A stretch of DNA of 64,000 nucleotides from a virus (IMGVR_UViG_3300035698_010959), one strand, 5' to 3'. Shown: positions 3,129 to 63,810, counted from the first letter of the stretch. Translations and numbers: made by a program. Notes: generated by a model from the letters alone, not told the origin.

Positions 3129-6100
3129 TTATTTCTTCCAGGTGTCTGCTATTTCTTTACTAACAGAACAAGGAACATCTTCTAAATATACGTGGGCTGC
3201 TTCAAGTAGTCGTGCTTCGCTAGCATCTACTACTGCTTGTATTTTATTTGCTGGGGCAGTTGTTACTATTTCATCGTGAACCCATAATATTATTCTACAT
3301 TCATATGGATAGTCTGACATTTGTACTAAATCTTTATGTAAGTTTATTGTTGCTAACTTTATTGTGTCGGCATTTGTACCTTGAATTGGTGCGTTGACGG
3401 CTGCTCGTTCTATAATACTTATTCGTTTAGAATATTCTTTTGGATTTTGTGTAATGTCTCCTTGTTTTGGCACATCATAATATCGTCTTCGTCCAGCCAA
3501 TGTTGTTGTATACTTTAATTCTTTTGCTTGATTTTTACATCCATCAAGATAATCTTTTATTTTTGGGTATGTTTTAAAGTAAGTAATTATAAGGTTTTGT
3601 GCGTCTTTTACTGGCATACCAGAACGTCTTGCTACTGTATCTGCTCCTGCTCCATAAGGTATTCCAAAGGTAACAGACTTACTTGCGTTTCGTTGGTCTT
3701 TAGTTACTTTTTTTGGGTCTACTCCAAATAGAGAAGCAGCAGTAACTCTATGAAAGTCATTTGTATATACTTGGTCTATATACTTTTTTATATCTGGATA
3801 ATCAATTATGAATTTAGCAAATGCGTCTGCGTTTTCTTCTTGGTCTGGTACCTCTGTAATGTTGTAAGATTTTAGTGCTTCTTTTAATAGTTGCTCTGCT
3901 TCATATCCATCTTTTAATATTTTGATTATTGTCTCGTCGTTAGAAGCTTTTGCTAAAACTCTTACCTCATACTGAGAAAGGTCACAATTGTGGCTAACGA
4001 AACCATTACTTATGTATGTTAGTGGTCCTGGAATATATAGATCATATACTCTATTTTGACCAACATTTTCTATAGAAGCTATGGTATCGTAAATTTGGTT
4101 ATATTCTAGTAATCTATATAGTTCCAACTCTTTATATACATTAGGATATGTAGTTTTTAGGTCTTTAGCTAGTTGTATATTTATTGGTCTTTCTAGACAT
4201 ATAATATTATCTAATAGTTTGTAAAGATCTCCTTTTGGATTAAGCTTCTTTAACTTTTGAGATCTACTAGGCATACTTCTTTTTTGGTGCTTTTCACCAG
4301 ATCTGGAAGACAATTTTTCTAGTTCGGTTTTCTTTCGTATAGATATAAAACCAATTTTATTTTTGTAGTCTTTTACATATGCTGCTGGAATAGATATAGA
4401 CCAATAATTCTTATGTATTTTTACTGTTTGTAATCTTCGTTTTGAAACTATACCTATAGATAGAAGAAGTAATTGCACATCTATAGCTAGTTGTTCATTT
4501 ACTGTAGAAAAGCGTAATCTGCCACAAGGATGATTGGATACGGATCCATCTGATTCAAATAATCCTCTTAGATAAGCCGCAATAGTTTCTGTGTCTGATG
4601 TCCATAGATAGTTAGGGGCATGTGTTTTTGCTCCACCAATACTTTTTAACCAAGCAACTAATTTTGTACTGTAAAACTGTGCATCAAATACTCCTCTATA
4701 ATGTAATATTTGTTTAGGTGTTTGTCCAAATAGAGATTTACATAGTTGCTGTAGGTAGGTATTAAGGTCTGGGTCTTTATCACATACTACCCAATATGGG
4801 CCAGATTTAGAAAAATGTCCATCTCCTGTCATATATCCCATAAATTCTGCTAAATCTTTTGTTGGTTTGTTTGGTGTAGTTACGCTCTTTTCAAAAGAGT
4901 GGGTATAGATAATTTCTGGTAAGGTTTCATTGTTTGCTTGTTTTGTATCAACCAAGTTATTTGGTTGTATTACTATTTTATCTTCTTTTGTTATATGTTG
5001 TAGTTCTTTCCAGCTATAATTTCCTTTATTGTCAAGTATCCGTATTCTATGTTGCGGAGTAGCTATCAATTCATATCCAAGCTTTGTTGTTAGTTTTAAT
5101 GTGTCCTGTATTCCATTATCTATTACTGTATTTACTTTAGCAACTGTTTTAGTATCAGTTAATGTTGTGTCCCCTTTACATATCTGTTCTATAGGTATGC
5201 TTCCTCTATTTGTAGTTACCTTTGTACCTTCTTTTACGCAGATGCCTACTTTATGTCCTTGTGGAGGTACAATCATCTTACGGAATCTGTTATCTTGTGG
5301 AAGGTTTTGTGAGTTTGGACTGTTACTAGAAAATCTTCCTGTATCTGTAGCTGCTTGTTTAACGTTTGAGTGTACTCGTTTGGTTTTTCTATTGTACATA
5401 GTGTCTCCCCATTGCACTATGTAATCATATAGTTTGTTTACTTCTCTATAGTCTAGTAATAGCTCTATACACTTATGTTCTTCTTTATAGTATGTTAATA
5501 CCTTTTCATCTGTGCTATCTGCTGGAATTCCTTTATCTCTAAGTGCTGATAATAATTGTTTTGGGGAATCAACATTTAATTGAGAGCGTGTACAGTTCAT
5601 CTCTTTTAGAAAATTTGTTTCTCTTGCTCTCATCTCTTGTTCAAGCTCTTCTTTTAACTTGGCAATGTGATCCAGGTCTACGTGTATTCCTAGATACTTG
5701 TGTTCACCCAATATTGGAATTAACGGTTTTTCTAATGTTTCCCATATATGCCATAGGTTTTCTGTCTCTAATTGTTTTGTAAGCAGTTCTTGTAATAGTA
5801 ATAAACTACAAGTATCTCCAGCCGCATATGCTATTTGTTTGTTTAACATTGGAGATTTTTTATGTAGAGTTTGAAACAGTGTTTGGCACTCTTTATCTAA
5901 GTGTAGTCCTAGTAACTCAAGAGTAGTTGCTTCTAATGAGGCTCTTGCCTTTAATAGTCCTGCTGTAAGGAGCTGTCTTGCTAACATTGTATCAAATTCT
6001 ATGTTTGTATTTATTTTGTAGTGTGTTTTAAACCAAGGCCATTCGAAGTTAGCTCCGTGTGTAACTATAGAGCACTTTTCTAATACGCTTGTAAAGAGTT

Positions 6101-6502: not shown

Positions 6503-9500
6503 CTAATTTTGCATAGTTAGTAGTGTTTCTGCTAAATTATTTATGTATCCTTGGTTCATTGTTTGTCTTTGATCGTTTATGTGTGTTGATTGAAATCCCT
6601 CTATTGGGCTTACTATATGTGAGTTTATTGCTTCTTGTAATGATGTAAGTATGTTAGTAGTATCTGTTGGGCCTTCAGTATTTCCTTCTATAAGTATATC
6701 TATTTTGTGATATACTGGTTTTTGTATTGATGCTGTTGTTGTATTTTTTACAGTTTCTATGGGTTCAGATTTATTACTAATCTCTTGAAGATCTGGTCTT
6801 CGTCCTAAAACCATTAACGAGCCAGCCATCATTGCTCCTAATATAAGTGCATACTTTCCTTTAGTTAGTCTACCTGCATCTAATAATTCAGAAATACCTT
6901 CTAGTTTATTTCCTATTCGTGTAAATTTAGTAGTTGCTTGAGAGGTTACTAACTCTTGTGCTTCTGGCTTTATTATTTTATCTAGTATAGTTCTAAGTGG
7001 AGTAGATAGCTCTCTGCTTTGTGCAAGGTCTTCTAGAGCTGATCTCCCAATGTGTCCCATCTCTTCTCCAGCGTACTTTCCTTGAGTGATTCGTGCTTTA
7101 GTAAAATCTTCTAGTGTACTTCCTTCATCAATATTAGTCCATCCTAACATATCCATAAGAGTGGATTGTTGTGGTTCTGTAAGTTTTGCAAATTTTTCTT
7201 CGCTTGTTGCTAGTCCTCCAAGGAATTTATAAGCTTTTGCTTTGCCTGCTCGTTGCGCTCTATATGGAGAAAGTGATGGATCCTGTAGTGCTTCACTTAT
7301 AAATACATTTTCTGTATGAGCTATAGATTTACCCCACATAAGTCTATCTATTTGATTATCTCCTCTTGCAAACATTAGGTCTTCTGCTTCCATTGCTTTT
7401 GCAAGAATAAGTTGTGCTTCATTTTGTGTTTTTGTTTGTATATTTTTTAAGGCATTTTGTCTAATCTGTCTGCTTTGTAAATACTCATTAAAGCTTGCTG
7501 TTGTTTCTAGTGATTGTTGCTCGCTTGCATTAAGGTTTCCTTTGCTAAATCGTTGTAATCTTTCTACAAACTTTCTTCCTGTTAGATTGGAATAGTTTTC
7601 TGGATCTATCGCTTTTGCGGCCTTGGTCCTATTTGATTGATAGGCTTCCAGTATTTCATTATCTAGCATGCTTTCTATTAAACGTTCTTCTGCGTCATTA
7701 GATAATATATCAACTTTTCTAGTTGTTAGAAATGTTTTTAGATCATCTACATCTAGCCCTCCAGGAATGCCTACCATTTCTGCAAGTATTTCATTTAGTC
7801 TTGAGGAGTCTGCTTTGTTTACAAGTTGAAGAGCTATACGTCTAATGTCAGATTGTATCATTAGATCAGAAGCAATTCTTATTGATTGTGGATTATCTCC
7901 TAAAGCTTTTATTGTAAACGCTAATCGTCTGTCATGTGCTGGTATATTTACATCTGTAAGTTGAGCCCATGGCGCTACGCTTTCTATATCTTCATAATAC
8001 TTCCGTAATACAAGATTCTTTTGCCAAGGTGCAAGTGTTTCATTTGCCACTAATTGATCATGTATATTTGAATGTTTTGGTATCCATTCATTTTCTAGCC
8101 AGTTTTTTTCTAATCGTATTTGATCTGCTAGTCTTGGATCATTTAGTGCTGCATCTGTAAACTTCATAGCATCTCTAACTGCCAGTGTATCTTCCGTTAG
8201 ACCAGCAATATCATCTTCCATTCCTCCAAAGTAATCCATTGGATTAGGAAGTCCAGAGGCTTCTTCTAATACTCTTAATCGTTCTAATTCTTTGTAAGGA
8301 AGGTCTACTTCATACATCATCTTACGTATACGATTTCGTGCTAGATCTTCTACAGCTCCTTGTCTTAGTTGTAGTCCTTCTTCAATGTTAACTGGTTTAA
8401 ATTCTCCTAATAACCTGTCTGGTAATGCATGTACTGGGCTATCAATTGGAGCCATAATTCTATTAGCTATTGGTTCTCCAGCTTCATTTAATTCTTGCAT
8501 TACAACACGAACAGATCCACCTAAATCTTCAGCATCCCAACCATAAAGTTTAAATAGCCTTCTCTCTCTTATTCCCCATAAATACTGCATGTTGGATCCA
8601 GCACTTAGTTTTTTTGGAGATCCTCCTTTTGTTGTTTTAAATATATTAAAATTACCTGCTTGATCTAATACTGTGGGTTTATCTATAGATAGTTTATTAA
8701 ATAAATCCATAGTTGTTCGTGCATCAAATAAGCCTATGTGTTCTTCTGTCCAAGCTGCCGATCTTATCCCTAATTTTCTTGATAGATTCTGTAGACTGTA
8801 TCCACCTGGCATTCCGCTTTTCATTATCTTGGATAGCATTAGTGTATCTACACTGCGATCAGACATTGTTTGTAAGCTTTTTATTACATTCTTTCCAAGG
8901 CCAAGATCTTTTGCTCTTTGTGTTAGCATACCTATATCAAAGCCTTTGTTATGTAATAAGAATAGAGTATCATCAGATTGTGTTACTATTTTGCTAGCCA
9001 GTTCTTCTATTAGAGCTGCTTCGTTTTGCATCAGCCTTGGAGTATATTTTTTTCCATATAATAAAGATTCTTGTGTACCAATATCTAATACATCTTCTGT
9101 TTGTAGCATTCCTCCTACAGTTGTTCGTCGTCTTCTAACTGCACCTATGTTGTATATTTTATTTGAAGTGTCTGTTTCTATGTCAAAAGCAAATAAATCT
9201 GCCTCTCCTAATAATGCTTTTTCAATATTAGTTAAGTGCTGTTTAAATGCTGCTGGAGATTCTAATGAACCTATACCTCCTCCTTGTTTTAGTGCAAAAA
9301 TAGGAAGAGTTTTACTTTTCTTAGATCGTGCAAGAGCGTTTGCTATAACTTGTGCTGCTGCAGGTGACCCAGGATCCATTGTTTTAACTATGTTATCTAA
9401 TGATGTAAGAGGTATTTCTGTACTTAGATCTGTTAGGGATTTAATTATTCCTGTCTCTATATCAAGTAACTTAGTGTTTGACATAACTTGATACTGCCGT

Positions 9501-14338: not shown

Positions 14339-14893
14339 TTAATCTTTCTTTTCTGTAATTGGCATAAACCCAGTTTCTTTTTGTTTTGGTAAGCATTTTC
14401 CAGTCCATAATTCATGCGCTATTCCATATGATATTATCTTTTCTGAAGATAAAAAGCTTTCTTCTTTTAGCAAAGAGTTCCATTTTTTTCTTTCTAAGTT
14501 AGTACGACTTACATAAAAATCTACAATAGAGGATGTTACTCTTTTATGGTCTATTTTTTCTTTATCTACTTCTATTAGGTTTAATGTATCTCCTCCATAA
14601 TACCAACTTATACCGTGTAATAACATGTATGCATGTTTTGATATATATCTCTTATTTGCGGCCATATATATAGTAGTAGCAGCACTTGATACCTGTCCAA
14701 GACCAATAGAGGTTGTATTATCATAACATGAAATTACATCTGTAAGAGCTAAAGCGGGATATAGCTGTCCTCCTTCACTATTTATAAATATAGTAACTGG
14801 AGCATTTTTTGGATGGCGTATAAGTGTATCTATTATAGGAGATATTTTTTCTAAAGTTATTTCTCCAAATATTGTAAGTACTAAGTTGTCCAC
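14339..14893 (-). CDS. ClpP-like serine protease
   Basis: IFINSEGG, GQVSSAA (catalytic Ser), MLLHG (catalytic His), FLSSEK..YGI pattern. Confidence 0.85.
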   Translation of the reverse strand: MDNLVLTIFGEITLEKISPIIDTLIRHPKNAPVTIFINSEGGQLYPALALTDVISCYDNTTSIGLGQVSSAATTIYMAANKRYISKHAYMLLHGISWYYGGDTLNLIEVDKEKIDHKRVTSSIVDFYVSRTNLERKKWNSLLKEESFLSSEKIISYGIAHELWTGKCLPKQKETGFMPITEKKD

Positions 14894-23300: not shown

Positions 23301-26180
23301 TGTAGGGATAGCAGATCGACTCCAATAATCTTTATTGTTATAATCTACATTCTCAGCGCCTTGCCATTCGGAGTTTGCCAGTTGGTAAGGATCTGGCATA
23401 AAGTAAGATACTCTATCTCCATAAAATGCCGATCTTGAGCCAAATAACCAGAACCTTCCTTTTCGTATAGGAACATAGCCACTATCTAATTGCTTTGCCA
23501 TGTCTGCTTTGTTTAATCCAGACATGTAGTATTTAGATCCTGGATGTAGTTCTGCGAATTTTTCCCAATCGTTAAGACCAGCCCACTGTAGTTTAAGGTT
23601 GGCTCTTATGTTTGCTATGCCCTCTTCTGGCCGTGCTCCTATTAAGTTTTCACTTTCATAGTTTATATATTTCCATGCTTCAACTGCTGCTACACCAGGT
23701 AGTATTCGTTGAACAACTAATCCACGTATTATGTCTGCTCCACTTCCAAGGTTCTCTGGATTTAATCCTAATCCAAATGGAGTTAGTGCTTCATTTAATC
23801 GTGTAGCAAAGAAGTAAGGTTTTAGACTGGTTCGTGTTATACTTCCAGAATCTGCACCTTGTACAAATGTACTTGCGTATTGTTTTGTAAAATCTGATCC
23901 AGCAAATTGCTTTATCATGTCCTGGAATGATCCACCAGATTTGGTAATATCATTAAGTGTTTTAATTAGTCCAGCATGTTGTTTTACTAATAGGCGTTGT
24001 GGGCCTTCATATACTTGAGGAGGAGTATGTATATCAAGAAGACCTAAGAAGTTATTCATTACATATTCTGAGGTTTCTTTTATTGAGGATGACTCTACTT
24101 TTTTAGTTAATAGATCTCTGGCTGCCTCTGCTCCTTGTACTTCTAATACGCTTCTTATTTGAGAACCATAGACTGCTGCTTTTGCTAATTCTAATTCTTG
24201 TTCTTCTAAGCCAAATCTTGCTTGTGTAAGTTTTGTTATAAGAGGCGTAGTTATACCTAACTCTGTTGGATTTGCATATCGTATGGCATATTCATCTATG
24301 AGAGCTTCTCTCATCAGGTCTATGCCGTGTTTAGATTCTGGAGCACCAAGAAGCCTATCCATAAGCGGTGATTTGCTTGTTACTCTTTGTGTTCTATCAA
24401 GAACTTCATTTGGACTTACACTAAAGTCCTCTAATAATATTGATAGTTTTTTAGAAGAAGCCTTTAGGCCATATGACCTATTCTGTTGGAAGAATTTTAC
24501 TATATCAGCATCATTCTCTATGTTCTGTAAAACACTCGCAACCTCTGGAGCATTAGGAAACATTCCTGTTTGAAGTGTTTTTCTTACATTCTGTGGAGAT
24601 ATTTTTCCTACTTTTTGTAAGAGAGTAGCTACTGTTCTTATGTCTTTTTCCATTGTAGCAGCAGGCGCTGTTGGATTCTTATATATTCGTTCTAGTGCTC
24701 CTGCTGGATAGCTTTTAGCTATTCTTGCTAGTTCTGAGTTTTCTGGAAACTTAGAAGGATCCGCAAACTTAGTAAAGATAGATCTTGCTTGTCTAAATAC
24801 AGAGTCTGTTGGTTGTCTTCCTGTAGAAAAGAAATTTTGTAACTTCTCTATAATTGTATTTCCACCTGTACCAAATCCAGCTAGATCTAATAATTTTCCT
24901 GATCCACTTCGAGTAATTCTATCTTTTTTTGCTGCTTTACTGGCTAATAGGTTACGCATTAAATGCTCACCAAGGCCATAGTCAGCATGTAGTGCGGTTA
25001 TATTGTCTACAGCATCTGATATTACATTATCTATAGCTAGTGAGTCACCAAAGCGCATTCCAACAGCAGTATTACCTACTAAAGATATGTCTTGGTTTCC
25101 TGAGAATAGTCCTTTTATTAGTGCTTGTTTACCAAGAGTGTTACTTTTTATAAGAGTATGTCCAAGTTTAACTTCACCTGTTAACCAAGGAAATAATCTA
25201 AATGGGCTGAATCCTCCAACAAAAGGTATAAGTGGTATTTCTACGTTTTCATTTAACCAACTTATACCTTTTCCTATTAACTTAGATGCTCCTCTAAGAT
25301 CTGTTACTTGTTTTCCATTAACTGTCCATAGTTCTCCAAGAACTGCTTTGTTTATTACATCTGTATCAGCTTGTTTTCCTAGAGTGTGTGCTAAGGTTTT
25401 ACTTGTTTTTTCTGCTTGCTCTATAACTTCGGCTGTAAAATTAGCTCTATTAGTTAAAACATTACCTACTGTAACGCGCTTAGCACCAAATACTTTTTCT
25501 GCTATTGCGTCTGTCCAACTACTATGTTGCCCTAAAGCAATGTTTGTATATTTTTCTGAAGATGCTGTTCTTTTTGTTAGAGCACGTGCTAGTAGTCTTT
25601 GATGTTCTTCTTTTGCTCTTGCTACTTGAGCTTGTAATGAAGATGCTCTTGGATCAGTTGGAAGTCCAAATGAGTTGTCAAATAGATGATCATTTGAAAG
25701 TCTTTTTCTAGCCGCTAGAAGATCTGCGGATATTTCATCTACACCTTTTCCTGTGCCTTCAAATGATGATCTAAGCCCAGAATAGGTATCATCCATCAGG
25801 TTTTTTGGAAGAGGATCACCAGGAGATATCCATGTTTTTATTCTACTATATGGAGCAACTCCACCCTCATATCCAAATAGATTATCTACTTGTGGGTTAA
25901 CCCAACCAGCATCTCCAAGATATCCTCGTAATCGTTGTTCTCCTACTTGCATTCGTGCTCTACTTGGTATTGTTTCATTTATAGCACGACCTACATCATC
26001 TGCAAAACGTGTTAGAGCAAACCTTGCTTCTGTTCTTTCTGCTGTTGCTAGACGAGCAGCTATAGTCTCTGCACCACGTAGTGCAAAGGCTGCTATTTTC
26101 TTTCTACCAAGTATTGCAGCAGTAGCTGCACCTACTCCAAGTATTTTCCATCTTGTATTTTGGTTTTCGTATGTATTCAT
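17370..26180 (-). CDS. Giant 2,936-aa protein at the tape-measure position (about 2,081 aa after splicing) with two inteins, a Cas4/AddB-like PD-(D/E)XK nuclease, an SNase-like fold and glycine-zipper/TM segments
   Basis: Follows sheath, tubes and chaperones. Nuclease motifs RASSLG, EGTQIH, ISGHMDALL, TEIKS, QLNFYM. SNase-like IMDANTLQV..LRLAGV..NINADLIQTG. GAIGAAVGAG/AALAGAAIGAGL zipper. Confidence 0.85.
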   Translation of the reverse strand: MNTYENQNTRWKILGVGAATAAILGRKKIAAFALRGAETIAARLATAERTEARFALTRFADDVGRAINETIPSRARMQVGEQRLRGYLGDAGWVNPQVDNLFGYEGGVAPYSRIKTWISPGDPLPKNLMDDTYSGLRSSFEGTGKGVDEISADLLAARKRLSNDHLFDNSFGLPTDPRASSLQAQVARAKEEHQRLLARALTKRTASSEKYTNIALGQHSSWTDAIAEKVFGAKRVTVGNVLTNRANFTAEVIEQAEKTSKTLAHTLGKQADTDVINKAVLGELWTVNGKQVTDLRGASKLIGKGISWLNENVEIPLIPFVGGFSPFRLFPWLTGEVKLGHTLIKSNTLGKQALIKGLFSGNQDISLVGNTAVGMRFGDSLAIDNVISDAVDNITALHADYGLGEHLMRNLLASKAAKKDRITRSGSGKLLDLAGFGTGGNTIIEKLQNFFSTGRQPTDSVFRQARSIFTKFADPSKFPENSELARIAKSYPAGALERIYKNPTAPAATMEKDIRTVATLLQKVGKISPQNVRKTLQTGMFPNAPEVASVLQNIENDADIVKFFQQNRSYGLKASSKKLSILLEDFSVSPNEVLDRTQRVTSKSPLMDRLLGAPESKHGIDLMREALIDEYAIRYANPTELGITTPLITKLTQARFGLEEQELELAKAAVYGSQIRSVLEVQGAEAARDLLTKKVESSSIKETSEYVMNNFLGLLDIHTPPQVYEGPQRLLVKQHAGLIKTLNDITKSGGSFQDMIKQFAGSDFTKQYASTFVQGADSGSITRTSLKPYFFATRLNEALTPFGLGLNPENLGSGADIIRGLVVQRILPGVAAVEAWKYINYESENLIGARPEEGIANIRANLKLQWAGLNDWEKFAELHPGSKYYMSGLNKADMAKQLDSGYVPIRKGRFWLFGSRSAFYGDRVSYFMPDPYQLANSEWQGAENVDYNNKDYWSRSAIPTPRYPLSTINRLLDPYAFEHKHSVGPNPDRPYIFSGEPFTRETLWGPILNATIGKIIKPRRVLHPDYLPENLEETQSKKQLRALNEATKHEAKAGGGKWNQPIRGGKGSETLADYSASPMILTEGSLATLTSAGQVALSELPPGMSDPWSKRTIGGARRVIRKQLEKINRELKSQGSSNIPARLQDIYGQEKAFTAEQLEDVDYIGNAELGSYLTREMMGLYGWMAGIPLGDRTGTVMADASRAYSYERKYWEAELGGLGGFLCLTPNMLLQQDFGTPIEVKDITTGTTLLSRYGIPQEVLAVHSRHINEDIRCIETYCGGFPLSATSEHPVFAISTEYCEHKDGRKKNSSCIPHCNKFQSCEFNYHQHYTPEWIAAKYIKKGDYIAYPIPKQSNILTKLNIVTTIGLSSITDFDNRFAFDNCKNAAVSFPKELLLTKDLGKFLGLWLAEGSFGNRDKGRLYEIHFAYDRDEESYATFCKDFANSLGLNTTAATTKEGYWYTRVCNRVLAEFIFAAFGAKNDKRIPSELLNTPKEFLLGILEGLFRGDGHCRSDRTNKTDLRISIVAYKLALQIFNILIMLGYTPSLSIKNRKRRFFINDITKKRYKTKPQFCVTLNGNDARNLRDQLGLLHFGNYQPDNSNNEGLSWRDANFIYFKVKENYPTAYEGLVYDFTMDGDPSFCTIGMIVHNSEIGRRFMPHRFRQVEEYNTVPNAFEETWLPGSNYFTNFQTGDMYTKLRAAGEVRLPGSAYERIHNMPLMRTRASSLGKSVNELVAEMVNIKEANSAYMENIMDEGTQIHKKYQNKWKKLGILEDEEVELYNPELGISGHMDALLNLDGKKYVTEIKSMSDKRFNSGEIFASHLDQLNFYMNESGIHRGLLFYMNRDNPEQTRIEHVGYSKRRVSNLFQKVEEARSKVREMIDSGEVSRADLYDMTTRFEILADTCVHPLTYIRTSDGSVKLAKDVKVGDRVISHKGDSKAVTRCAIRHYSPHLIKLNVAFIPAHPLLATPEHPIYTIKAPSNAKNIPQYNANNDNIISDENEFNRYCYPIDTADWVALGDIRSNDVVLYPIPKKETPPNFLNIKDILPDSYTLREDTWLHPKRQGCNTFCISQLLVDARFAKAAGVYLAEGSSNGRSTKTHQPKGLIFSLNINEIETANFLKDYFADICETTPKIFTKPESNSRYVCVTNQTIGKLFCNIFGQRSATKQLPQWAFNLDSELQRQLLSSYFAGDGCLCASKHNDCKTGHQLQAEMTTISLKLALGIRDMLLQNGFVASVQFTTRKSYFPKQDRRQIYRVRMFGTVAYDFVTWVTGKAPSYVRPENRRRQAWIDGNYLVSKVIKTEKQPYSGEVYNWTIEDDNSFCVLGYATHNSPYSQEYKQLKGYLPHDDQLTEDQRDRFQAAKKRAGAQKKRLDLFPYRFKNANVEEQTYTVSNIMDANTLQVRESEHPLRLAGVRASNQRITDEYGENENLSPAEVLYRQYGIRKGTKVTALVNKDPEDRYADDVLGTQHAVVMAHNRNINADLIQTGVGIEKEEWSAAGIYARFTEKEITAGARYETISHADTMLNSKFLKIRSPYEEYVRSQVYGKKYGRWESAYSSYIEPTIQSYVAKGAIGAAVGAGVFSSLFMRTKKMRGKAALAGAAIGAGLSILRQGQEALTGEPWIPNRTQKRRDVEEYYDTLEYIKYRRLYEATAKLANDEEGTDVEEIDDRARNLGQWRKEKIRELEDKRRKHLLANERGSKEELAIRAEIQELQSRSETVALGPLATQAVLYQQKYRSTMYGADPGGPYMNIFRALPKYEREIINGLITGSTPEERKKAYRLLPDYEQRLLGIHLGIEEEDIPKRKLLGDYFKVHTLPGESWKGWSPEVDLEQLKARTTVQEHTDPLDYGFYPQVVVEAEHNTNEVQLPTVHGSSSHIQKTLNNLLSGNGIKNLRIRVNSVPDANASSDNINIAMNVRQNRMKEIAETLNLYG
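19185..20468 (-). mobile_element. Intein (428 aa) with LAGLIDADG endonuclease
   Basis: ADT|CVHPLTYI ... ATPEHP ... GVYLAEG ... SYFAGDG ... YATHN|SPY. Confidence 0.92.
21234..22514 (-). mobile_element. Intein (427 aa) with LAGLIDADG endonuclease
   Basis: GFL|CLTPNMLL ... ATSEHP ... GLWLAEG ... GLFRGDG ... MIVHN|SEI. Confidence 0.92.
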
Positions 26181-58013: not shown

Positions 58014-58039
58014 AAGAAGATTTTACCAAATCTTCTCAT
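58014..58039 (-). repeat. 26-bp palindromic repeat, copy 3
   Basis: Exact match to copy 1; intergenic. Confidence 0.9.
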
Positions 58040-58808: not shown

Positions 58809-59109
58809 GTGTATTATGCGGCTTTTACTAGTTTTTTTGTAATTTTTTTATAGAGTATCTGATCAACAAGAAGATTTGGTAAAATCAGGCTCTCTCCACA
58901 AGAGAGTATGAATATACTTTCTTCACAAGAGAGTAAAATCAGGCTCTCTCCACTATATCTTCTAAATCCTCTCGACCTTATAGCTAACTAATTTTTTTGT
59001 AATTTTTTTTTCATAGAGTCTCCTGGTATATAGTTTGAGAGATAGGGGGGTATGTATCTTTAGAGCCCCACCCCTCTCTCAGACAAATAAAACAAAGGAG
59101 TATATGATA

Positions 59110-59553
59110 ATGAGTATTAAAAATGCAATCCAAGTAAATAGGCTAAGACGTGAGGCCAGAAAGATCTTAGATCTCAATGGTCTTTCACATGTCGAGCTAA
59201 CAACTGGTAGTTACTTTGTGTTTCACGTTTCTACTAAGGACACGACTCCATCTATAGAGCTACCTGGTAATGTGTCAAGTGTGTTATCTTTCCTGAAGAG
59301 TAATGGAGTAACTAAGACGTTGAAGGAAATTCTATATCATGAGATAGGACATGCAATAGACTTTAACATACGAGGATATGATGCACTGCATAAGGATATG
59401 GTAGAGATGCATTGCCTCTATAGCGGTATTGTGGAAAGATGTGGAGATGATGTGGCTGCTGGTCAAAGAGAATTAGAGAATCTCCCATTAGAAGCAACAG
59501 CAAATAGGATAGCGGCTGGTCTTATTAAGGAAGGTGGTGTGTATAAGGTATAG
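59110..59553 (+). CDS. HExxH zinc metallopeptidase-like protein (ImmA/IrrE-like motif spacing); start revised
   Basis: SD AAGGAG at 59095-59100; LYHEIGHAID...LEATANRIA. Confidence 0.7.
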   Translation: MSIKNAIQVNRLRREARKILDLNGLSHVELTTGSYFVFHVSTKDTTPSIELPGNVSSVLSFLKSNGVTKTLKEILYHEIGHAIDFNIRGYDALHKDMVEMHCLYSGIVERCGDDVAAGQRELENLPLEATANRIAAGLIKEGGVYKV

Positions 59554-59566
59554 CAATAGGGGATAA

Positions 59567-59624
59567 CATAGTCTCTATACACATGGGGATTAAACTCACT
59601 ATCTCTCGGTCTAGAAATAAGGAG
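59567..59624 (+). repeat. Conserved structured leader element, copy 1
   Basis: CATAG-TCTCTAT-ACAC-ATGGGGA-TTAAAC...TCTCGGTCT-AGAAATAAGGAG. Confidence 0.85.
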
Positions 59625-59632
59625 TAACTTGA

Positions 59633-59863
59633 ATGTTTAAGTATAATAAGCTGAATGTAGGGCTGTTCATAGGGTTGACGATTGCTGCTGTATGTGGTGG
59701 CATATCGAGATTACCTGTTAATGCTAATGAGTGGCTTATTCTAAGCGCTCTATGGGGAAGCACGTTCTTCCTCGTGTTTCGTAGATGGTCAACAAAGAAG
59801 TCTTGGTCTGTAGACATGGTAGTAAGATGTGTCTGCAACTACTGGAGGGCAAGCAACAACTAA
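59633..59863 (+). CDS. Small membrane protein
   Basis: Two hydrophobic helices; SD AAGGAG. Confidence 0.65.
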   Translation: MFKYNKLNVGLFIGLTIAAVCGGISRLPVNANEWLILSALWGSTFFLVFRRWSTKKSWSVDMVVRCVCNYWRASNN

Positions 59864-59871
59864 CTAGTATC

Positions 59872-59901
59872 TAACTCTTCTCGGTCTGTATGAATAAGGA
59901 G
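59872..59901 (+). repeat. Leader element, partial copy (3' module only)
   Basis: TAACTCTTCTCGGTCT...AAGGAG. Confidence 0.75.
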
Positions 59902-59908
59902 ATATCAA

Positions 59909-60160
59909 ATGTTTGGATGGATGGTAGTAATAGGTCTCGCTTCTGTTCTCACACTTACAGTGCTGAGAATGTTTCTTCCTCCTAGACCTAGATGGGGGCG
60001 AGTAGGGCTAGCAGTAGTTCTCTTCTGGGGACTGATAGTAGCTATCAATGTTGTAGCAGAACAAGCTGCTAGTCCTTTGCTGGATGCTGGGGATGACCTT
60101 GCTAGACGAACAGCTGCTACTAATCTAGTAATTGAAGAGAACAATTATCTCAGTTACTGA
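59909..60160 (+). CDS. Small membrane protein
   Basis: Two TM helices; SD AAGGAG. Confidence 0.7.
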   Translation: MFGWMVVIGLASVLTLTVLRMFLPPRPRWGRVGLAVVLFWGLIVAINVVAEQAASPLLDAGDDLARRTAATNLVIEENNYLSY

Positions 60161-60178
60161 TGTGTAGCATCTACTATG

Positions 60179-60235
60179 CGAAGCTCTATGTTTATAGAGT
60201 TAAACGTTTTTCTTCTTCTCGGTCTAGATTGGAGG
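60179..60235 (+). repeat. Conserved structured leader element
   Basis: CGAAG-CTCTATG-TT-TATAGAG-TTAAAC...TCTCGGTCT-AGATTGGAGG. Confidence 0.85.
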
Positions 60236-60246
60236 ATAAATGGATT

Positions 60247-60468
60247 ATGAGTGCCTGCATTCGGTTTTCTGGTAACGCAGTTGGAGGCTATATCCCAGCA
60301 TCTAATTTGGCAGCTATTGTATCTGCTGCTGTTCTTCAAGGAATTAATCCTGTAAAAGGGATTAAGAGTCTCTTTGGATCACAGGCAAGAGAAACACTTG
60401 CTTCTGCTCTTCTAGAGGCTGCTCCTAGTGAGAAAACCATACTAGATAGTTTGATTGGCAAACTCTAG
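60247..60468 (+). CDS. Hypothetical protein (start revised to MSACIRF)
   Basis: The track ORF begins at 60160 but spans the leader element; SD GGAGG at 60231-60235. Confidence 0.6.
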   Translation: MSACIRFSGNAVGGYIPASNLAAIVSAAVLQGINPVKGIKSLFGSQARETLASALLEAAPSEKTILDSLIGKL

Positions 60469-60484
60469 TGCTACTATTGATTAA

Positions 60485-60540
60485 CGAAGTTTCTGTATAT
60501 GGGGATTAAACTTTTTACTTCTCGGTCTAGAAACTGGAGG
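60485..60540 (+). repeat. Conserved structured leader element
   Basis: CGAAG-TTTCTGT-AT-ATGGGGA-TTAAAC...TCTCGGTCT-AGAAACTGGAGG. Confidence 0.85.
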
Positions 60541-60545
60541 ACAAT

Positions 60546-60797
60546 ATGAAAGCGTTGGTTTTGATAATAATAATAGCAGTGTGTGTAATAATACTTATAC
60601 ACGAAGGCAAACCCGAACAGAAATGTTCTCAAAATAGAGCAAACTTTGCAGCAGAGACAACAGCAACTGCTGCTCCAATGAGATCAATAGTAGATGTGAT
60701 GTATGAACAAAGACGAGTTGGCGAGTGCGCTCGAAGAGAGTTAAAGGAGAAAAGAATAGCTGAGAAAAAAGCTCTTAAGGAAAAACGTGGGTATTAA
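60546..60797 (+). CDS. Small protein with an N-terminal membrane anchor
   Basis: MKALVLIIIIAVCVIILI; SD GGAGG. Confidence 0.7.
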   Translation: MKALVLIIIIAVCVIILIHEGKPEQKCSQNRANFAAETTATAAPMRSIVDVMYEQRRVGECARRELKEKRIAEKKALKEKRGY

Positions 60798-60800
60798 CTA

Positions 60801-60866
60801 CGAAGTTCTATACTTGTATAGAATTAAACTCTACTCTTCTCGTTTTCCTATCTCGAAAGGATAGAA
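60801..60866 (+). repeat. Conserved structured leader element (subtype shared with 62267)
   Basis: CGAAG-TTCTATAC-TT-GTATAGAA-TTAAAC...TCTCGTTTT-CCTATCTCGAAAGGATAG. Confidence 0.85.
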
Positions 60867-60874
60867 TGTAGATC

Positions 60875-61459
60875 ATGCTAAGACAAACTAATGTATTTGT
60901 AACCGGAAACAGCACAAAGGAAACATGTGATGGTGGCTGTAAGTCTAAGATACTGGAGTGTGTGAACATGGAATTAGAAACCATATACCTCTCTCCTTGT
61001 CAGTTCAAAGGGAACAAGACTAAATGTTCTCATGGTTCTGAGGAATATATTGGTGTTCCTTTCTCTGAGATTACTAAGGCTCTTGCTGTTAAGAGATCTG
61101 AAATCACAACTGGGCTGTTTGATGTTCAGGCGGTCAAAGCAAATATGGAGAGCAATCCTGTGGTATCTGCTGTTGCTTTGGCTAAGGCAATTAAAGCCAA
61201 GGGTATCTATGATGCTGCTAAAGCATTTTGTAATACTACTGTAACATCTACTAAGAAAGCAATAGGCGTTTCTATCCCTGTTTGTAAGAGAATAAGGGCA
61301 GGAAGCAAGGATGCTACGCTTATAGGCAGCAAGGCCGCTGTTGGGGCTGCTATGGCCGGTTATGGGGCATCTAAGCCTATAGCTAACAAGGCTCTGGTTG
61401 CTGCTAAGGGGTTGCTGAAGCTGCGGCTCAAGGTTATTAAGGTCGATCAATCTAAATAG
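60875..61459 (+). CDS. Hypothetical Lys/Ala-rich protein with an N-terminal Cys cluster
   Basis: 194 aa. Confidence 0.65.
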   Translation: MLRQTNVFVTGNSTKETCDGGCKSKILECVNMELETIYLSPCQFKGNKTKCSHGSEEYIGVPFSEITKALAVKRSEITTGLFDVQAVKANMESNPVVSAVALAKAIKAKGIYDAAKAFCNTTVTSTKKAIGVSIPVCKRIRAGSKDATLIGSKAAVGAAMAGYGASKPIANKALVAAKGLLKLRLKVIKVDQSK

Positions 61460-61487
61460 AGGTATTACTCTTGTATTGTTGTGACTT

Positions 61488-61552
61488 CATAGGTCTATCT
61501 TTATAGACTTAAACGACTCTTTTCTTTTCTCGGTCTGTATATGAAAGTGAGA
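61488..61552 (+). repeat. Conserved structured leader element
   Basis: CATAG-GTCTAT-CTTT-ATAGAC-TTAAAC...TCTCGGTCT. Confidence 0.85.
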
Positions 61553-61562
61553 ATGTATTGTA

Positions 61563-61769
61563 ATGTATAGTAGTTATGCTCGTAAAGATAGGCATCATCT
61601 CTGTCTTATGTGTGGGGCAGATCTCGACTTTGGTAGTCACTATTCAAATTGTGACTACAACAACAAAGAAAACCTGAGCCTGAAAAGGAAATTCTCTGCT
61701 TCTTACCTTCGTGGTCTAGAAGAAAGCATACTATCAAGAAACAGTAGAAAGGATAAAGTAAGTATTTAG
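61563..61769 (+). CDS. Small Zn-finger protein
   Basis: CLMCG...H...C. Confidence 0.6.
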   Translation: MYSSYARKDRHHLCLMCGADLDFGSHYSNCDYNNKENLSLKRKFSASYLRGLEESILSRNSRKDKVSI

Positions 61770-61789
61770 GTAACTACTAATAGTAATTG

Positions 61790-61819
61790 GTCCTGAGTAC
61801 GACGGTAAAGCCTGCTCAG
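61790..61819 (+). ncRNA. Predicted compact H-type pseudoknot abutting an SD
   Basis: GTC/GAC stem; the loop CTGAGTA pairs with downstream TGCTCAG. Confidence 0.45.
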
Positions 61820-61881
61820 AAGGAAATAACATGAAACAACAGAACTACACTGAGATTGAGATTTAGGAGGACAGTATTCTT

Positions 61882-62061
61882 ATGGGTATCTGTGTTGTAT
61901 GTGGTAAGAAAGTAGATATAGAGACTTCTGATGCTAGAAGTGCTTTTATTCTACTGACTGAGCGTGCTGATTATTATGGCATGGAGGCTCTTACTGAGAA
62001 CCAACAGGTTCTTGTTGAGGGTAAGGTTTGTAGCATGAAATGCTATCATGAGTTAGCATAG
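61882..62061 (+). CDS. 59-aa Zn-finger protein (not in ORF track)
   Basis: SD AGGAGG; MGICVVCGKK...VCSMKCYHELA. Confidence 0.7.
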   Translation: MGICVVCGKKVDIETSDARSAFILLTERADYYGMEALTENQQVLVEGKVCSMKCYHELA

Positions 62062-62080
62062 ACATGCGTGTGTGTTTTTT

Positions 62081-62132
62081 CGAAGTCACTATATTTAGTG
62101 ATTAAACTCTTTACCTTTCGTTCTTAGAAAGG
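62081..62132 (+). repeat. Conserved structured leader element
   Basis: CGAAG-TCACTA-TATT-TAGTGA-TTAAAC...CCTTTCGTTCTTAGAAAGG. Confidence 0.85.
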
Positions 62133-62139
62133 AAAACAA

Positions 62140-62238
62140 ATGTATATCAAGACAGAAGAACTTTACTTGTCTCCACTTGTTAAGTGGCTGATTCGACTTG
62201 CTGAGGTAGTGACATATGCTACTTCTAGACGCGCATAA
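62140..62238 (+). CDS. 32-aa small protein (not in ORF track)
   Basis: SD GAAAGGA; MYIKTEELYLSPLVKWLIRLAEVVTYATSRRA; has its own leader element. Confidence 0.6.
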   Translation: MYIKTEELYLSPLVKWLIRLAEVVTYATSRRA

Positions 62239-62266
62239 GAAGAAGATGGTCTCTTTTAACTATTCA

Positions 62267-62335
62267 CGAAGTTCTATATCTTTATAGGATTAAACTCTTT
62301 TCTTTCTCGTTTTCCTATCTTGCGAAAGGATAGAA
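62267..62335 (+). repeat. Conserved structured leader element (subtype shared with 60801)
   Basis: CGAAG-TTCTATA-TCTT-TATAGGA-TTAAAC...TCTCGTTTT-CCTATCTTGCGAAAGGATAG. Confidence 0.85.
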
Positions 62336-62341
62336 CAAATC

Positions 62342-62779
62342 ATGCATACAGTAAACGCTAATAACAGCAATTACGAGGAACTTGAATCTGGCAATTGGAT
62401 GAATACTCTTTGTGAAGGCATTCATCAGGCAGTTCAAGGTGACATCCCTGTTAGTCGAACAGTTACTATTCCCAAAGTTACAAATGGTAAGAACTTCTTG
62501 CCCAAGGTAACAATAGACTACACATCAGATAGAAGCCTGCATGCTCAGGTATTCTATTCCAACGTGTTTAAGGGAACAACTGCTGATAAGATGGTTGTTA
62601 TTTCAGCACAACAGAATGACATTCGAAAGTCTAATAATCCTGGAGCAACATTCAGGGATACAGTCTTTACTATAACCATCTTCAAGGATGGTAAGCCTGT
62701 TAAGGGCTATGACCGACGCCGAGGTATGAGAAAGTATTCCTCTGATAAGAGAACTTTCTTATTTGCTGATAAGAGATAG
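62342..62779 (+). CDS. Hypothetical protein
   Basis: 145 aa, SD AAAGGA. Confidence 0.7.
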   Translation: MHTVNANNSNYEELESGNWMNTLCEGIHQAVQGDIPVSRTVTIPKVTNGKNFLPKVTIDYTSDRSLHAQVFYSNVFKGTTADKMVVISAQQNDIRKSNNPGATFRDTVFTITIFKDGKPVKGYDRRRGMRKYSSDKRTFLFADKR

Positions 62780-62802
62780 TAGTAGCTGTTGTCATCTTTC
62801 TA

Positions 62803-62861
62803 CATAGGTCTACTTCAATTAGACTTAAACTCTATACTCTTCTCGGTCTACAACGAAAGGA
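62803..62861 (+). repeat. Conserved structured leader element
   Basis: CATAG-GTCTA-CTTCAAT-TAGAC-TTAAAC...TCTCGGTCT-ACAACGAAAGGA. Confidence 0.85.
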
Positions 62862-63167: not shown

Positions 63168-63187
63168 AGGTAACGAAGTTACCTTTT
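63168..63187 (+). terminator. Possible intrinsic terminator
   Basis: AGGTAAC-GAA-GTTACCT followed by TTT. Confidence 0.45.
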
Positions 63188-63251
63188 ACACAAAGAACAA
63201 AGTTCTTTGGTTACGTTTGTATTCTAGTTTCTATTGGTACTGTTGTATATG

Positions 63252-63275: not shown

Positions 63276-63410
63276 ATGGGATGCTATTGTACTAGTGTGT
63301 AAGTACGTGTCTGTATTTGTACGCGAAGTGCGGATACTTAATTGATTGATTGATTGATAATTTGTAAGTCTGTAACTATTCCCGGTCTAGAATAATGGAG
63401 AACAACTATC

Positions 63411-63719: not shown

Positions 63720-63810
63720 TTACTAGCATTCACTCAGTTGTAAGTGTGTCTGTAACTTTTTTAAGTCTGTAGTTTCTCGGTCTTTTTTACAAAGGAGAAC
63801 AATGTAAACT

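Follow-up and report, generated by a model that had tools for sequence, protein, structure and literature searches.

How is a row of small phage genes expressed when one gene after another is preceded by a different version of the same short hairpin? The question is raised by a 3.3-kb stretch of IMGVR_UViG_3300035698_010959, an uncultured giant phage of which we analyzed 64 kb (the window; 36% guanine plus cytosine), where a 27–29-nucleotide (nt) element of the form C[AG][AT]AG-N16-18-TTAAAC recurs between small genes. The window phage is a myovirus (tail sheath, portal) with inteins in PolA, the terminase and a 2,936-aa protein; its portal protein is present on contigs of up to 226 kb, and about 85 of the 226 kb of its own genome were examined. 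Minus-strand genes extend up to 58,656, and a cluster of small plus-strand genes begins at 59,110. The element-bearing cluster, about 4.2 kb of small, co-oriented genes, encodes only ORFans: its proteins belong to no informative family and have no relative outside the lineage. The element itself is real, statistically solid and previously undescribed.

A regular-expression scan of the window returned eight plus-strand copies, all intergenic, and no further plus-strand copies elsewhere in the 64 kb (Table 1). This bore out the sequence-only reading of the locus, which had listed eight copies with fixed flanks, each in front of a small gene. Counting both strands at box spacings of 16–18 nt, there were nine matches, compared with a mean of 0.63 and a maximum of 4 in 300 simulated sequences with the dinucleotide content of the window; the ninth, on the minus strand at 23619, lies inside an open reading frame (ORF) and lacks a hairpin. 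The approximately 21 kb past the window end (contigs L119–L128 and L175) held no additional copies, and the motif is thereby restricted to one 3.3-kb stretch of the roughly 85 kb examined. Each copy begins 3–28 nt after the preceding stop codon and ends 32–48 nt before the next ATG; the ORF downstream of copy 6 has only 32 codons. Copies 4 and 7 are near-duplicates across about 75 nt and stand before unrelated genes. In its long version, the ORF at 60160–60468 (102 aa) overlaps copy 2; its true start is probably 60247 (73 aa), behind TGGAGGA, as some gene callers agree.

Table 1. Copies of the hairpin element and associated features in the window, with predicted folding energies of the sense-strand RNA (antisense, that is template-strand, values where given). 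Hyphens separate the fixed flanks from the stem, and spaces separate the loop from its two arms.
Feature	Coordinates	Strand	Sequence	Folding energy (kcal/mol)	Context
Copy 1	59567..59595	+	CATAG-TCTCTAT ACAC ATGGGGA-TTAAAC	-8.5 (z -4.0); antisense -0.1	Stop at 59553, 13 nt upstream; ATG at 59633, 37 nt downstream
Copy 2	60179..60205	+	CGAAG-CTCTAT GTTT ATAGAG-TTAAAC	-7.3	Before 73-aa gene, start 60247
Copy 3	60485..60511	+	CGAAG-TTTCTG TATA TGGGGA-TTAAAC	-2.8 (z -1.1); antisense 0	
Copy 4	60801..60829	+	CGAAG-TTCTATA CTTG TATAGAA-TTAAAC	-6.1	3 nt past stop codon
Copy 5	61488..61514	+	CATAG-GTCTAT CTTT ATAGAC-TTAAAC	-7.8	
Copy 6	62081..62107	+	CGAAG-TCACTA TATT TAGTGA-TTAAAC	-8.2 (z -5.0)	
Copy 7	62267..62295	+	CGAAG-TTCTATA TCTT TATAGGA-TTAAAC	-6.7; antisense -2.0	Before 145-aa gene with a homologue on L153
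Copy 8	62803..62830	+	CATAG-GTCTA CTTCAAT TAGAC-TTAAAC	-6.5	
Leader (example)	59596..59632	+	TCTCGGTCT box at 59604		
GCCCCACCCCT box	59065..59075	+	GCCCCACCCCT		About 35 nt upstream of ATG 59110
Two terminator-like hairpins	63168..63209	+	AGGTAAC-GAA-GTTACCT, then CAAAGAAC-AAA-GTTCTTTG		After last element-bearing gene

On the sense strand, the RNA of all eight copies is predicted to fold (-2.8 to -8.5 kcal/mol), with z-scores of -3.2 to -5.0 in seven of them. The reverse complements fold much more weakly (0 to -5 kcal/mol), and those of copies 1 and 3 are essentially unfolded; copy 3, which has the weakest hairpin and four inner G·U pairs, is wholly unfolded on the antisense strand. The predicted helix comprises about 8–9 pairs, with an inner stem of 5–7 pairs and a loop of 3–4 nt. 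It extends into the fixed flanks, where AG pairs with UU (one A-U and one G·U pair) in all nine copies, that is, the eight in the window and one in a relative described below; the CATAG copies add a U-A pair. A site recognized as RNA would be expected to have a helix that runs into its invariant flanks in this way; two promoter boxes would do so only by coincidence. Copy 8 carries one mismatch in the 8–9-pair form and may alternatively adopt 5 pairs with a 7-nt loop. The stems drawn in the sequence-only reading were right in that every copy folds, but as drawn they left an impossible 2-nt loop in copies 2, 3 and 4 and missed the AG/TT pairs.

Since a MAFFT alignment of the eight copies was structurally inconsistent, covariation was counted on a 27-nt class (four window copies and the copy of the relative, aligned without gaps) and with an outer-anchored script. 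In the 27-nt alignment, 97.5% of the cells are paired and six of the eight pairs have changed on both sides. Its covariation score of 0.96 compares with 0.35 in shuffles and was reached in 0 of 500; pairing fell to at most 45% once the partner columns were slid. Each 5′ arm fits its own 3′ arm at 47 of 48 variable positions, compared with a mean of 3.66 of 6 per copy when the arm of another copy is substituted, and permuting the arms reached the observed pairing in 17 of 100,000 trials. The stems do not vary freely: they share a TCTAT/ATAGA core and form sub-families (copies 4 and 7, copies 5 and 8, copies 1 and 3), while copy 6 shows doubly compensated pairs. The 66 pairs include 15 that depart from Watson-Crick pairing, all of them G·U and none A·C on the sense strand, exactly the coding-strand bias that had been claimed. 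The proposal that selection acts on a folded plus-strand molecule, likewise made from the sequence alone, is supported by the covariation, by this restriction to G·U and by the poor folding of the antisense strand; we infer that the molecule is RNA rather than plus-strand DNA.

The same data bear on a purely DNA-based explanation, in which the inverted repeat would be a double-stranded operator bound by a dimeric regulator that switches each gene. The TCTAT...ATAGA core present in most copies, and its position adjoining gene starts, would suit such an operator. However, the half-sites co-change (in copy 6, in the outermost pair and throughout the stem of the relative), which keeps the pairing and destroys any common half-site, and a G·T-only asymmetry would be meaningless in duplex DNA. 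We regard an operator as highly improbable.

A single distant homologue, on contig L153, came out of an exhaustive search with the 145-aa protein of the cluster. This contig carries a syntenic region and is the closest relative found: the flanking minus-strand genes are 60–63% identical, and six cluster genes are 28–50% identical and shuffled in order. L153 has one clean copy of the element, CGTAG-CCTCCTGAGCAAGAGG-TTAAAC (5462–5488), 5 nt past a stop codon, in which the stem sequence is wholly different while the register of 8 pairs with a 4-nt loop and the TTAAAC are kept. In its full context, the 5′ arm of this copy (CCUCCU) has an alternative pairing with the downstream Shine-Dalgarno sequence. 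A decayed second copy, with both boxes lost, lies upstream of the gene at 7045. Downstream of the clean copy, L153:5489–5560 contains a Shine-Dalgarno sequence and then a possible 13-codon, TTG-initiated ORF whose stop overlaps the next ATG (ATGA), an arrangement that suggests translational coupling.

Beyond L153, the element is absent from the relatives G001–G003 (42–53% portal identity). A covariance model built from copies 2 and 5 recovered six of the eight window copies at E<0.1, with copies 1 and 3 in the noise; against G001–G004 it returned nothing, and the flank pattern gave only chance-level matches in those relatives. The hairpins of L153 and G001 lie only 25–45 nt upstream of start codons, leaving no promoter space after them, so that transcription of the genes behind has to pass through the hairpins. 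In G001, perfect palindromes of the form GTTACA-NN-TGTAAC occur before several plus-strand genes (contig L147, at about 12300, 14310 and 16460). Ten contigs of the window phage from other samples carry identical element copies; they are clonal (3 single-nucleotide polymorphisms in 6 kb, 0 inside elements), which makes strain variation uninformative as a test of selection. No match turned up when the DNA of the region was compared with 50,697 phage records, locus searches of IMG/VR seeded with early proteins returned nothing, a metagenome scan with the neighboring 202-aa protein found no match, and a genome scan with the portal profile yielded neither a match nor a clue to the host. The pattern TTAAAC-N4-16-TCTCGGTCT had at least 118 single matches in IMG/VR, which is chance level. 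The covariance models of Rfam 15, including hammerhead, twister, pistol and hatchet, gave no match, confirming that the element belongs to no named RNA family there. As a hammerhead target the element was rejected: neither the window nor the sequence beyond it contains a CUGAnGA...GAAA core with arms complementary to TCTCGGTC/TAGAA.

The reading that we favor, tentatively and at somewhat less than an even chance, is that the element punctuates a polycistronic transcript as a structured RNA site. A single long RNA, or a nested set of long RNAs, would cover the cluster, starting in the divergent region at 58.66–59.10 kb and ending at the hairpins at 63.17–63.21 kb. Within this transcript, each module would fold as 5′-C-R-W, closing A-U and G·U pairs, and AAAC-3′, and the base of the helix would be recognized by a structure- and sequence-specific factor, which could come from the host (an endoribonuclease) or from the phage (an RNA-binding protein or a nuclease). 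Cutting or binding beside the hairpin would separate the message gene by gene: the upstream cistron would retain a protective 3′ hairpin, and the downstream cistron would retain its own leader, with a pyrimidine tract, the TCTCGGTCT box and a sequestered Shine-Dalgarno sequence. Read-through of the cluster, and the binding or cutting by the factor together with its site, are the parts that we infer. The punctuation reading gains support from the element-free first gene, from the terminator-like hairpins after the last element-bearing gene and from the absence of a sigma-70-like promoter between 58.5 and 64 kb, where a consensus scan found 11 weak matches, compared with 17 expected.

By analogy, the simplest account of such a role would be that of the RNase III sites in the early mRNA of the phages T7 and SP82. 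In T7, the intergenic hairpins of the polycistronic early transcript are cut to give single-gene messages with a stabilizing 3′ hairpin. For the Bacillus phage SP82, RNase III sites in early mRNA go back to Panganiban and Whiteley (1983), as that work is cited in PMC4838370. Like these sites, the element would place hairpins between the genes of a presumed polycistronic transcript. Unlike them, with hairpins of about 20 bp or more and internal loops, it has a helix of about 8–9 bp with fixed single-stranded flanks. RNase III acts on about 20 bp (two helical turns) of double-stranded RNA, and the stems measure 7–10 bp including the flanks; their shortness means that a different enzyme or a binding protein would be needed.

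Several points weigh against RNA punctuation. The stems are too short for RNase III, and among the cluster proteins, all ORFans, no nuclease or RNA-binding protein was identified. No recognizable promoter was found for the postulated long transcript. Repeated motifs 30–50 nt before nearly every early phage gene are usually promoters, and 16–18 nt between two boxes is the classic -35/-10 distance; moreover, an A lies exactly 6 nt after TTAAAC in five of nine copies and could be a start site. Relatives of the phage encode sigma-70-family (Sigma70_r2) proteins, from which phage-specific bipartite promoters would be expected in the group. Finally, single-stranded DNA also tolerates G·T pairs.

The chief competing explanation is that the element is a compact promoter-plus-hairpin cassette, with CRWAG as a -35-like box and TTAAAC (or TAAACT) as a -10-like box, used by the host polymerase together with a phage sigma factor or activator; in read-through RNA, the inverted repeat of the spacer would act as a 3′ stabilizer or weak terminator. 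We hold this to be possible, though on the doubtful side. Its precedent is the promoter-early stem-loop (PeSL) cassette of T4-type phages (Arbiol 2010, PMC2839356; Comeau 2014, PMC4122927), which joins conserved promoter boxes to variable stem-loops in hyperplastic regions (PMC4122927). The two are alike in several ways: a large myovirus has a plastic region in which short composite cassettes recur before small ORFans, each with conserved boxes, a stem that varies in sequence but still pairs, and a Shine-Dalgarno sequence and start codon at the 3′ end, and gene order is shuffled between relatives. The region behaves accordingly as hyperplastic, with ORFans, a gene order different from that of L153 and near-duplicate copies 4 and 7. 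The differences are structural. PeSL cassettes have boxes of sigma-70 character, hexamers of the TTGACA/TATAAT types with about 17 nt between them, and the element has CRWAG and TTAAAC; the PeSL stem-loop lies upstream of the -35 box as a terminator, whereas the hairpin of the element lies between the boxes and its base is built from them. In addition, the element has no U-tract: none of the eight copies scored as an intrinsic terminator (hairpin plus T-run), and the stems continue into (UU)AAAC.

Several sequence features are what a promoter of this kind would show. The two boxes are near-invariant and 16–18 nt apart in nine of nine copies, TAAACT fits TAnnnT in seven of nine, the A at +6 falls in a purine-poor tract, and a position 32–48 nt before start codons would give leaders of about 25–40 nt. 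The plus-strand cluster lacks sigma-70 promoters, though the phage and its relative use perfect ones elsewhere: TTGACA-N17/18-TGnTATAAT occurs at L175:15666–15701 and at L153:4604 (minus strand, divergent region), which makes the canonical sigma-70 consensus very likely the one that the polymerase of the host uses. The Sigma70_r2 proteins of the relatives, and the lack of an RNA polymerase of their own detectable in them (PF00940 was absent in a search that had no positive control), would fit transcription by the host enzyme with a phage factor. Against this stand boxes unlike the sigma-70 consensus, with no sigma-70-like -35/-10 pair coinciding with any of the eight copies, and copies 2 and 7, in which the first purine to start on is at least 13 nt after TTAAAC. 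The first cluster gene lacks an element, the motif is confined to 3.3 of about 85 kb, and the sigma-encoding relatives G001–G003 do without it; the second L153 copy precedes a gene despite the loss of both boxes. We know of no promoter class of such a type with a covarying hairpin spacer. The AG/TT complementarity and the G·U-only bias demand a second function at the RNA level.

Two other promoter arrangements were considered and rejected. With TTAAAC as a -35 box, the -10 box would fall on or beside the Shine-Dalgarno sequence and the spacing would vary from 16 to 23; for a promoter upstream of the hairpin, with transcription starting at CRWAG, an alignment of that region (A1) contained no conserved motif. 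The balance is then one of assumptions: RNA punctuation requires an unnamed factor and a promoter further upstream, and the promoter cassette requires a second, RNA-level function on the same bases. We consider it unlikely that the locus represents either a dedicated hairpin-specific RNA-cutting or RNA-binding system of the phage or its host, which would read the fixed helix base (CRW / A-U, G·U / AAAC) on a stem of constant length and thereby divide a multi-gene message into its genes, a Cas6-like logic applied to mRNA, or a promoter class with a sense-folding spacer. Of the three models originally offered, a processing or protein-binding site is thus the favored one, a promoter with a hairpin spacer is also viable, and mimicry of CRISPR repeats found no support, as set out below.

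A hairpin can also serve as a promoter in its own right. The promoters of the N4 virion RNA polymerase have conserved flanks and a stem that may vary as long as it pairs, in a hairpin of the template strand (PMC4496689). An N4-type promoter, extruded by supercoiling as a single-stranded DNA hairpin and recognized by a phage RNA polymerase, would account for conserved flanks around a stem in which only pairing is kept, and for its strand specificity. The element, however, folds on the sense strand; on the template strand the hairpins contain C·A mismatches, and those of copies 1, 3 and 7 are unstable (Table 1). N4 promoters also have a 3-nt, purine-centered loop, a GC-rich core and a dedicated, injected polymerase, whereas the loops here are 3–7 nt long and unconserved. 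No such polymerase was seen in the roughly 85 of 226 kb of the phage genome; no T7-like polymerase domain was found in the relatives (again without a positive control), and the two giant window proteins contain no RNA polymerase. The phage is, moreover, a myovirus with a tail sheath. An N4-type promoter is accordingly a very remote prospect.

As CRISPR-repeat mimics, the copies would be solitary units that work as RNA anti-CRISPRs by sequestering a Cas6, Cas12a or Cascade protein. The GGGGATTAAAC of copies 1 and 3 resembles type I-E repeat ends, and UCUAU-N4-AUAGA the stem of a Cas12a repeat. Like CRISPR repeats and the solitary repeat units of RNA anti-CRISPRs (Racr), which occur among small phage genes (PMC10651486), the element is a 27–29-nt unit with a hairpin and a short conserved, A-rich 3′ tail in a small-ORFan setting. 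A mimic would be expected to copy one host repeat, yet the eight stems differ, only the 5 + 6 flank bases are shared and GGGGATTAAAC occurs in just two of eight copies. Among 185,579 species genomes there was no array of the form of copies 2 and 5 (21 single matches, compared with about 17 by chance), and the copies sit within leaders of protein genes instead of forming stand-alone small RNA genes. Mimicry is the least probable of all the readings, and scarcely credible.

The plasticity of the region raises, lastly, the reading that the element is a recombination or mobility site, with cassette borders that shuffle small genes in the manner of PeSL mini-circles or integron attC. Similar cassettes before unrelated ORFans, the near-duplication of copies 4 and 7 and the different gene order in L153 would agree with it. 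No recombinase was found in the region, however, and the CRWAG/TTAAAC flanks pair over only 2–3 nt and are not complementary RYYYAAC/GTTRRRY attC boxes. The ten clonal strain contigs contain no cassette gain or loss, and shuffling is a possible by-product of any repeated sequence. We judge a mobility site to be very improbable.

The sequence downstream of the element is patterned as well. Behind every copy comes a leader that contains, in this order, a pyrimidine tract, a YTCG(G/T)TYT box and a strong Shine-Dalgarno site. Predictions pair the Shine-Dalgarno site with the pyrimidine tracts, which are strand-asymmetric, and this suggests constraint at the RNA level over the entire spacer of about 90 nt. 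The idea that the 5′ flank pairs with the tract downstream was rejected, as L153 does not keep that pairing. Shine-Dalgarno-like strings precede 12 of 13 plus-strand cluster genes, compared with 19 of 42 minus-strand genes of the window. The YTCG(G/T)TYT box also occurs without a hairpin at 59879, 63380 and 63775 and past the window, and these hairpin-less leaders are preceded by TCTAAC, TGTAAC or TATAAAC. A second shared motif, TTGTAAGT(GT)GTCTGTAAC, was observed at 63340–63380 and 63745–63775, before the leaders of the hairpin-less genes 63411 and 63811; GTCTGTA-type strings recur in L153.

At the upstream boundary, the first cluster gene (ATG 59110) lacks the hairpin element and is preceded by the GCCCCACCCCT box. 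GCCCCACCCCT(T/C) is kept about 35–45 nt upstream of the first plus-strand gene in L153 (about 4690–4700) and in L148, a relative at 51% identity (about 14720–14735), and may be a candidate start signal of the cluster or a piece of a 5′ hairpin. At the downstream boundary, the two terminator-like hairpins likely mark the 3′ end of the transcription unit. The first of them (63168–63184) is common to L153 (2732–2750) and probably represents a terminator shared by both phages.

Other features were noted around the cluster. Just past the window end, between the cluster and the next plus-strand genes, L120:10620–11830 is 1.2 kb of non-coding sequence rich in repeats and hairpins, with no Rfam match. 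The genes at L175:16202–21794 encode RtcB, an RNA ligase (PF09414), a Macro domain protein and a SocA_Panacea protein, and look like an RNA-repair and anti-defense set. A repeat, ATGAGAAGATTTGGTAAAATCTTCTT, occurs in the window at 58027, 57486 and 55791 on the minus strand and, in part, at 58870 on the plus strand, and in L175 at about 2560 (plus) and 3915 (minus); it contains a 9-bp hairpin and a TGnTAAAAT extended -10-like string, and can also be read as an ORF start (MRRFGKIFL).

The element belongs among the intergenic regulatory cassettes of phages, where it has not been described before. For the present, its reach is limited to one uncultured phage of about 226 kb and one relative. How large phages express their ORFan-rich takeover clusters is little understood beyond T4, T7 and N4, and clear covariation with strand asymmetry from only nine copies makes this a clean and easily testable case. 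Whether the message is cut or the hairpin is part of a promoter, the short list of known regulatory cassettes in phages would gain a new type, and the element might provide a portable 27-nt part for use as an insulator, a processing site or an orthogonal promoter.

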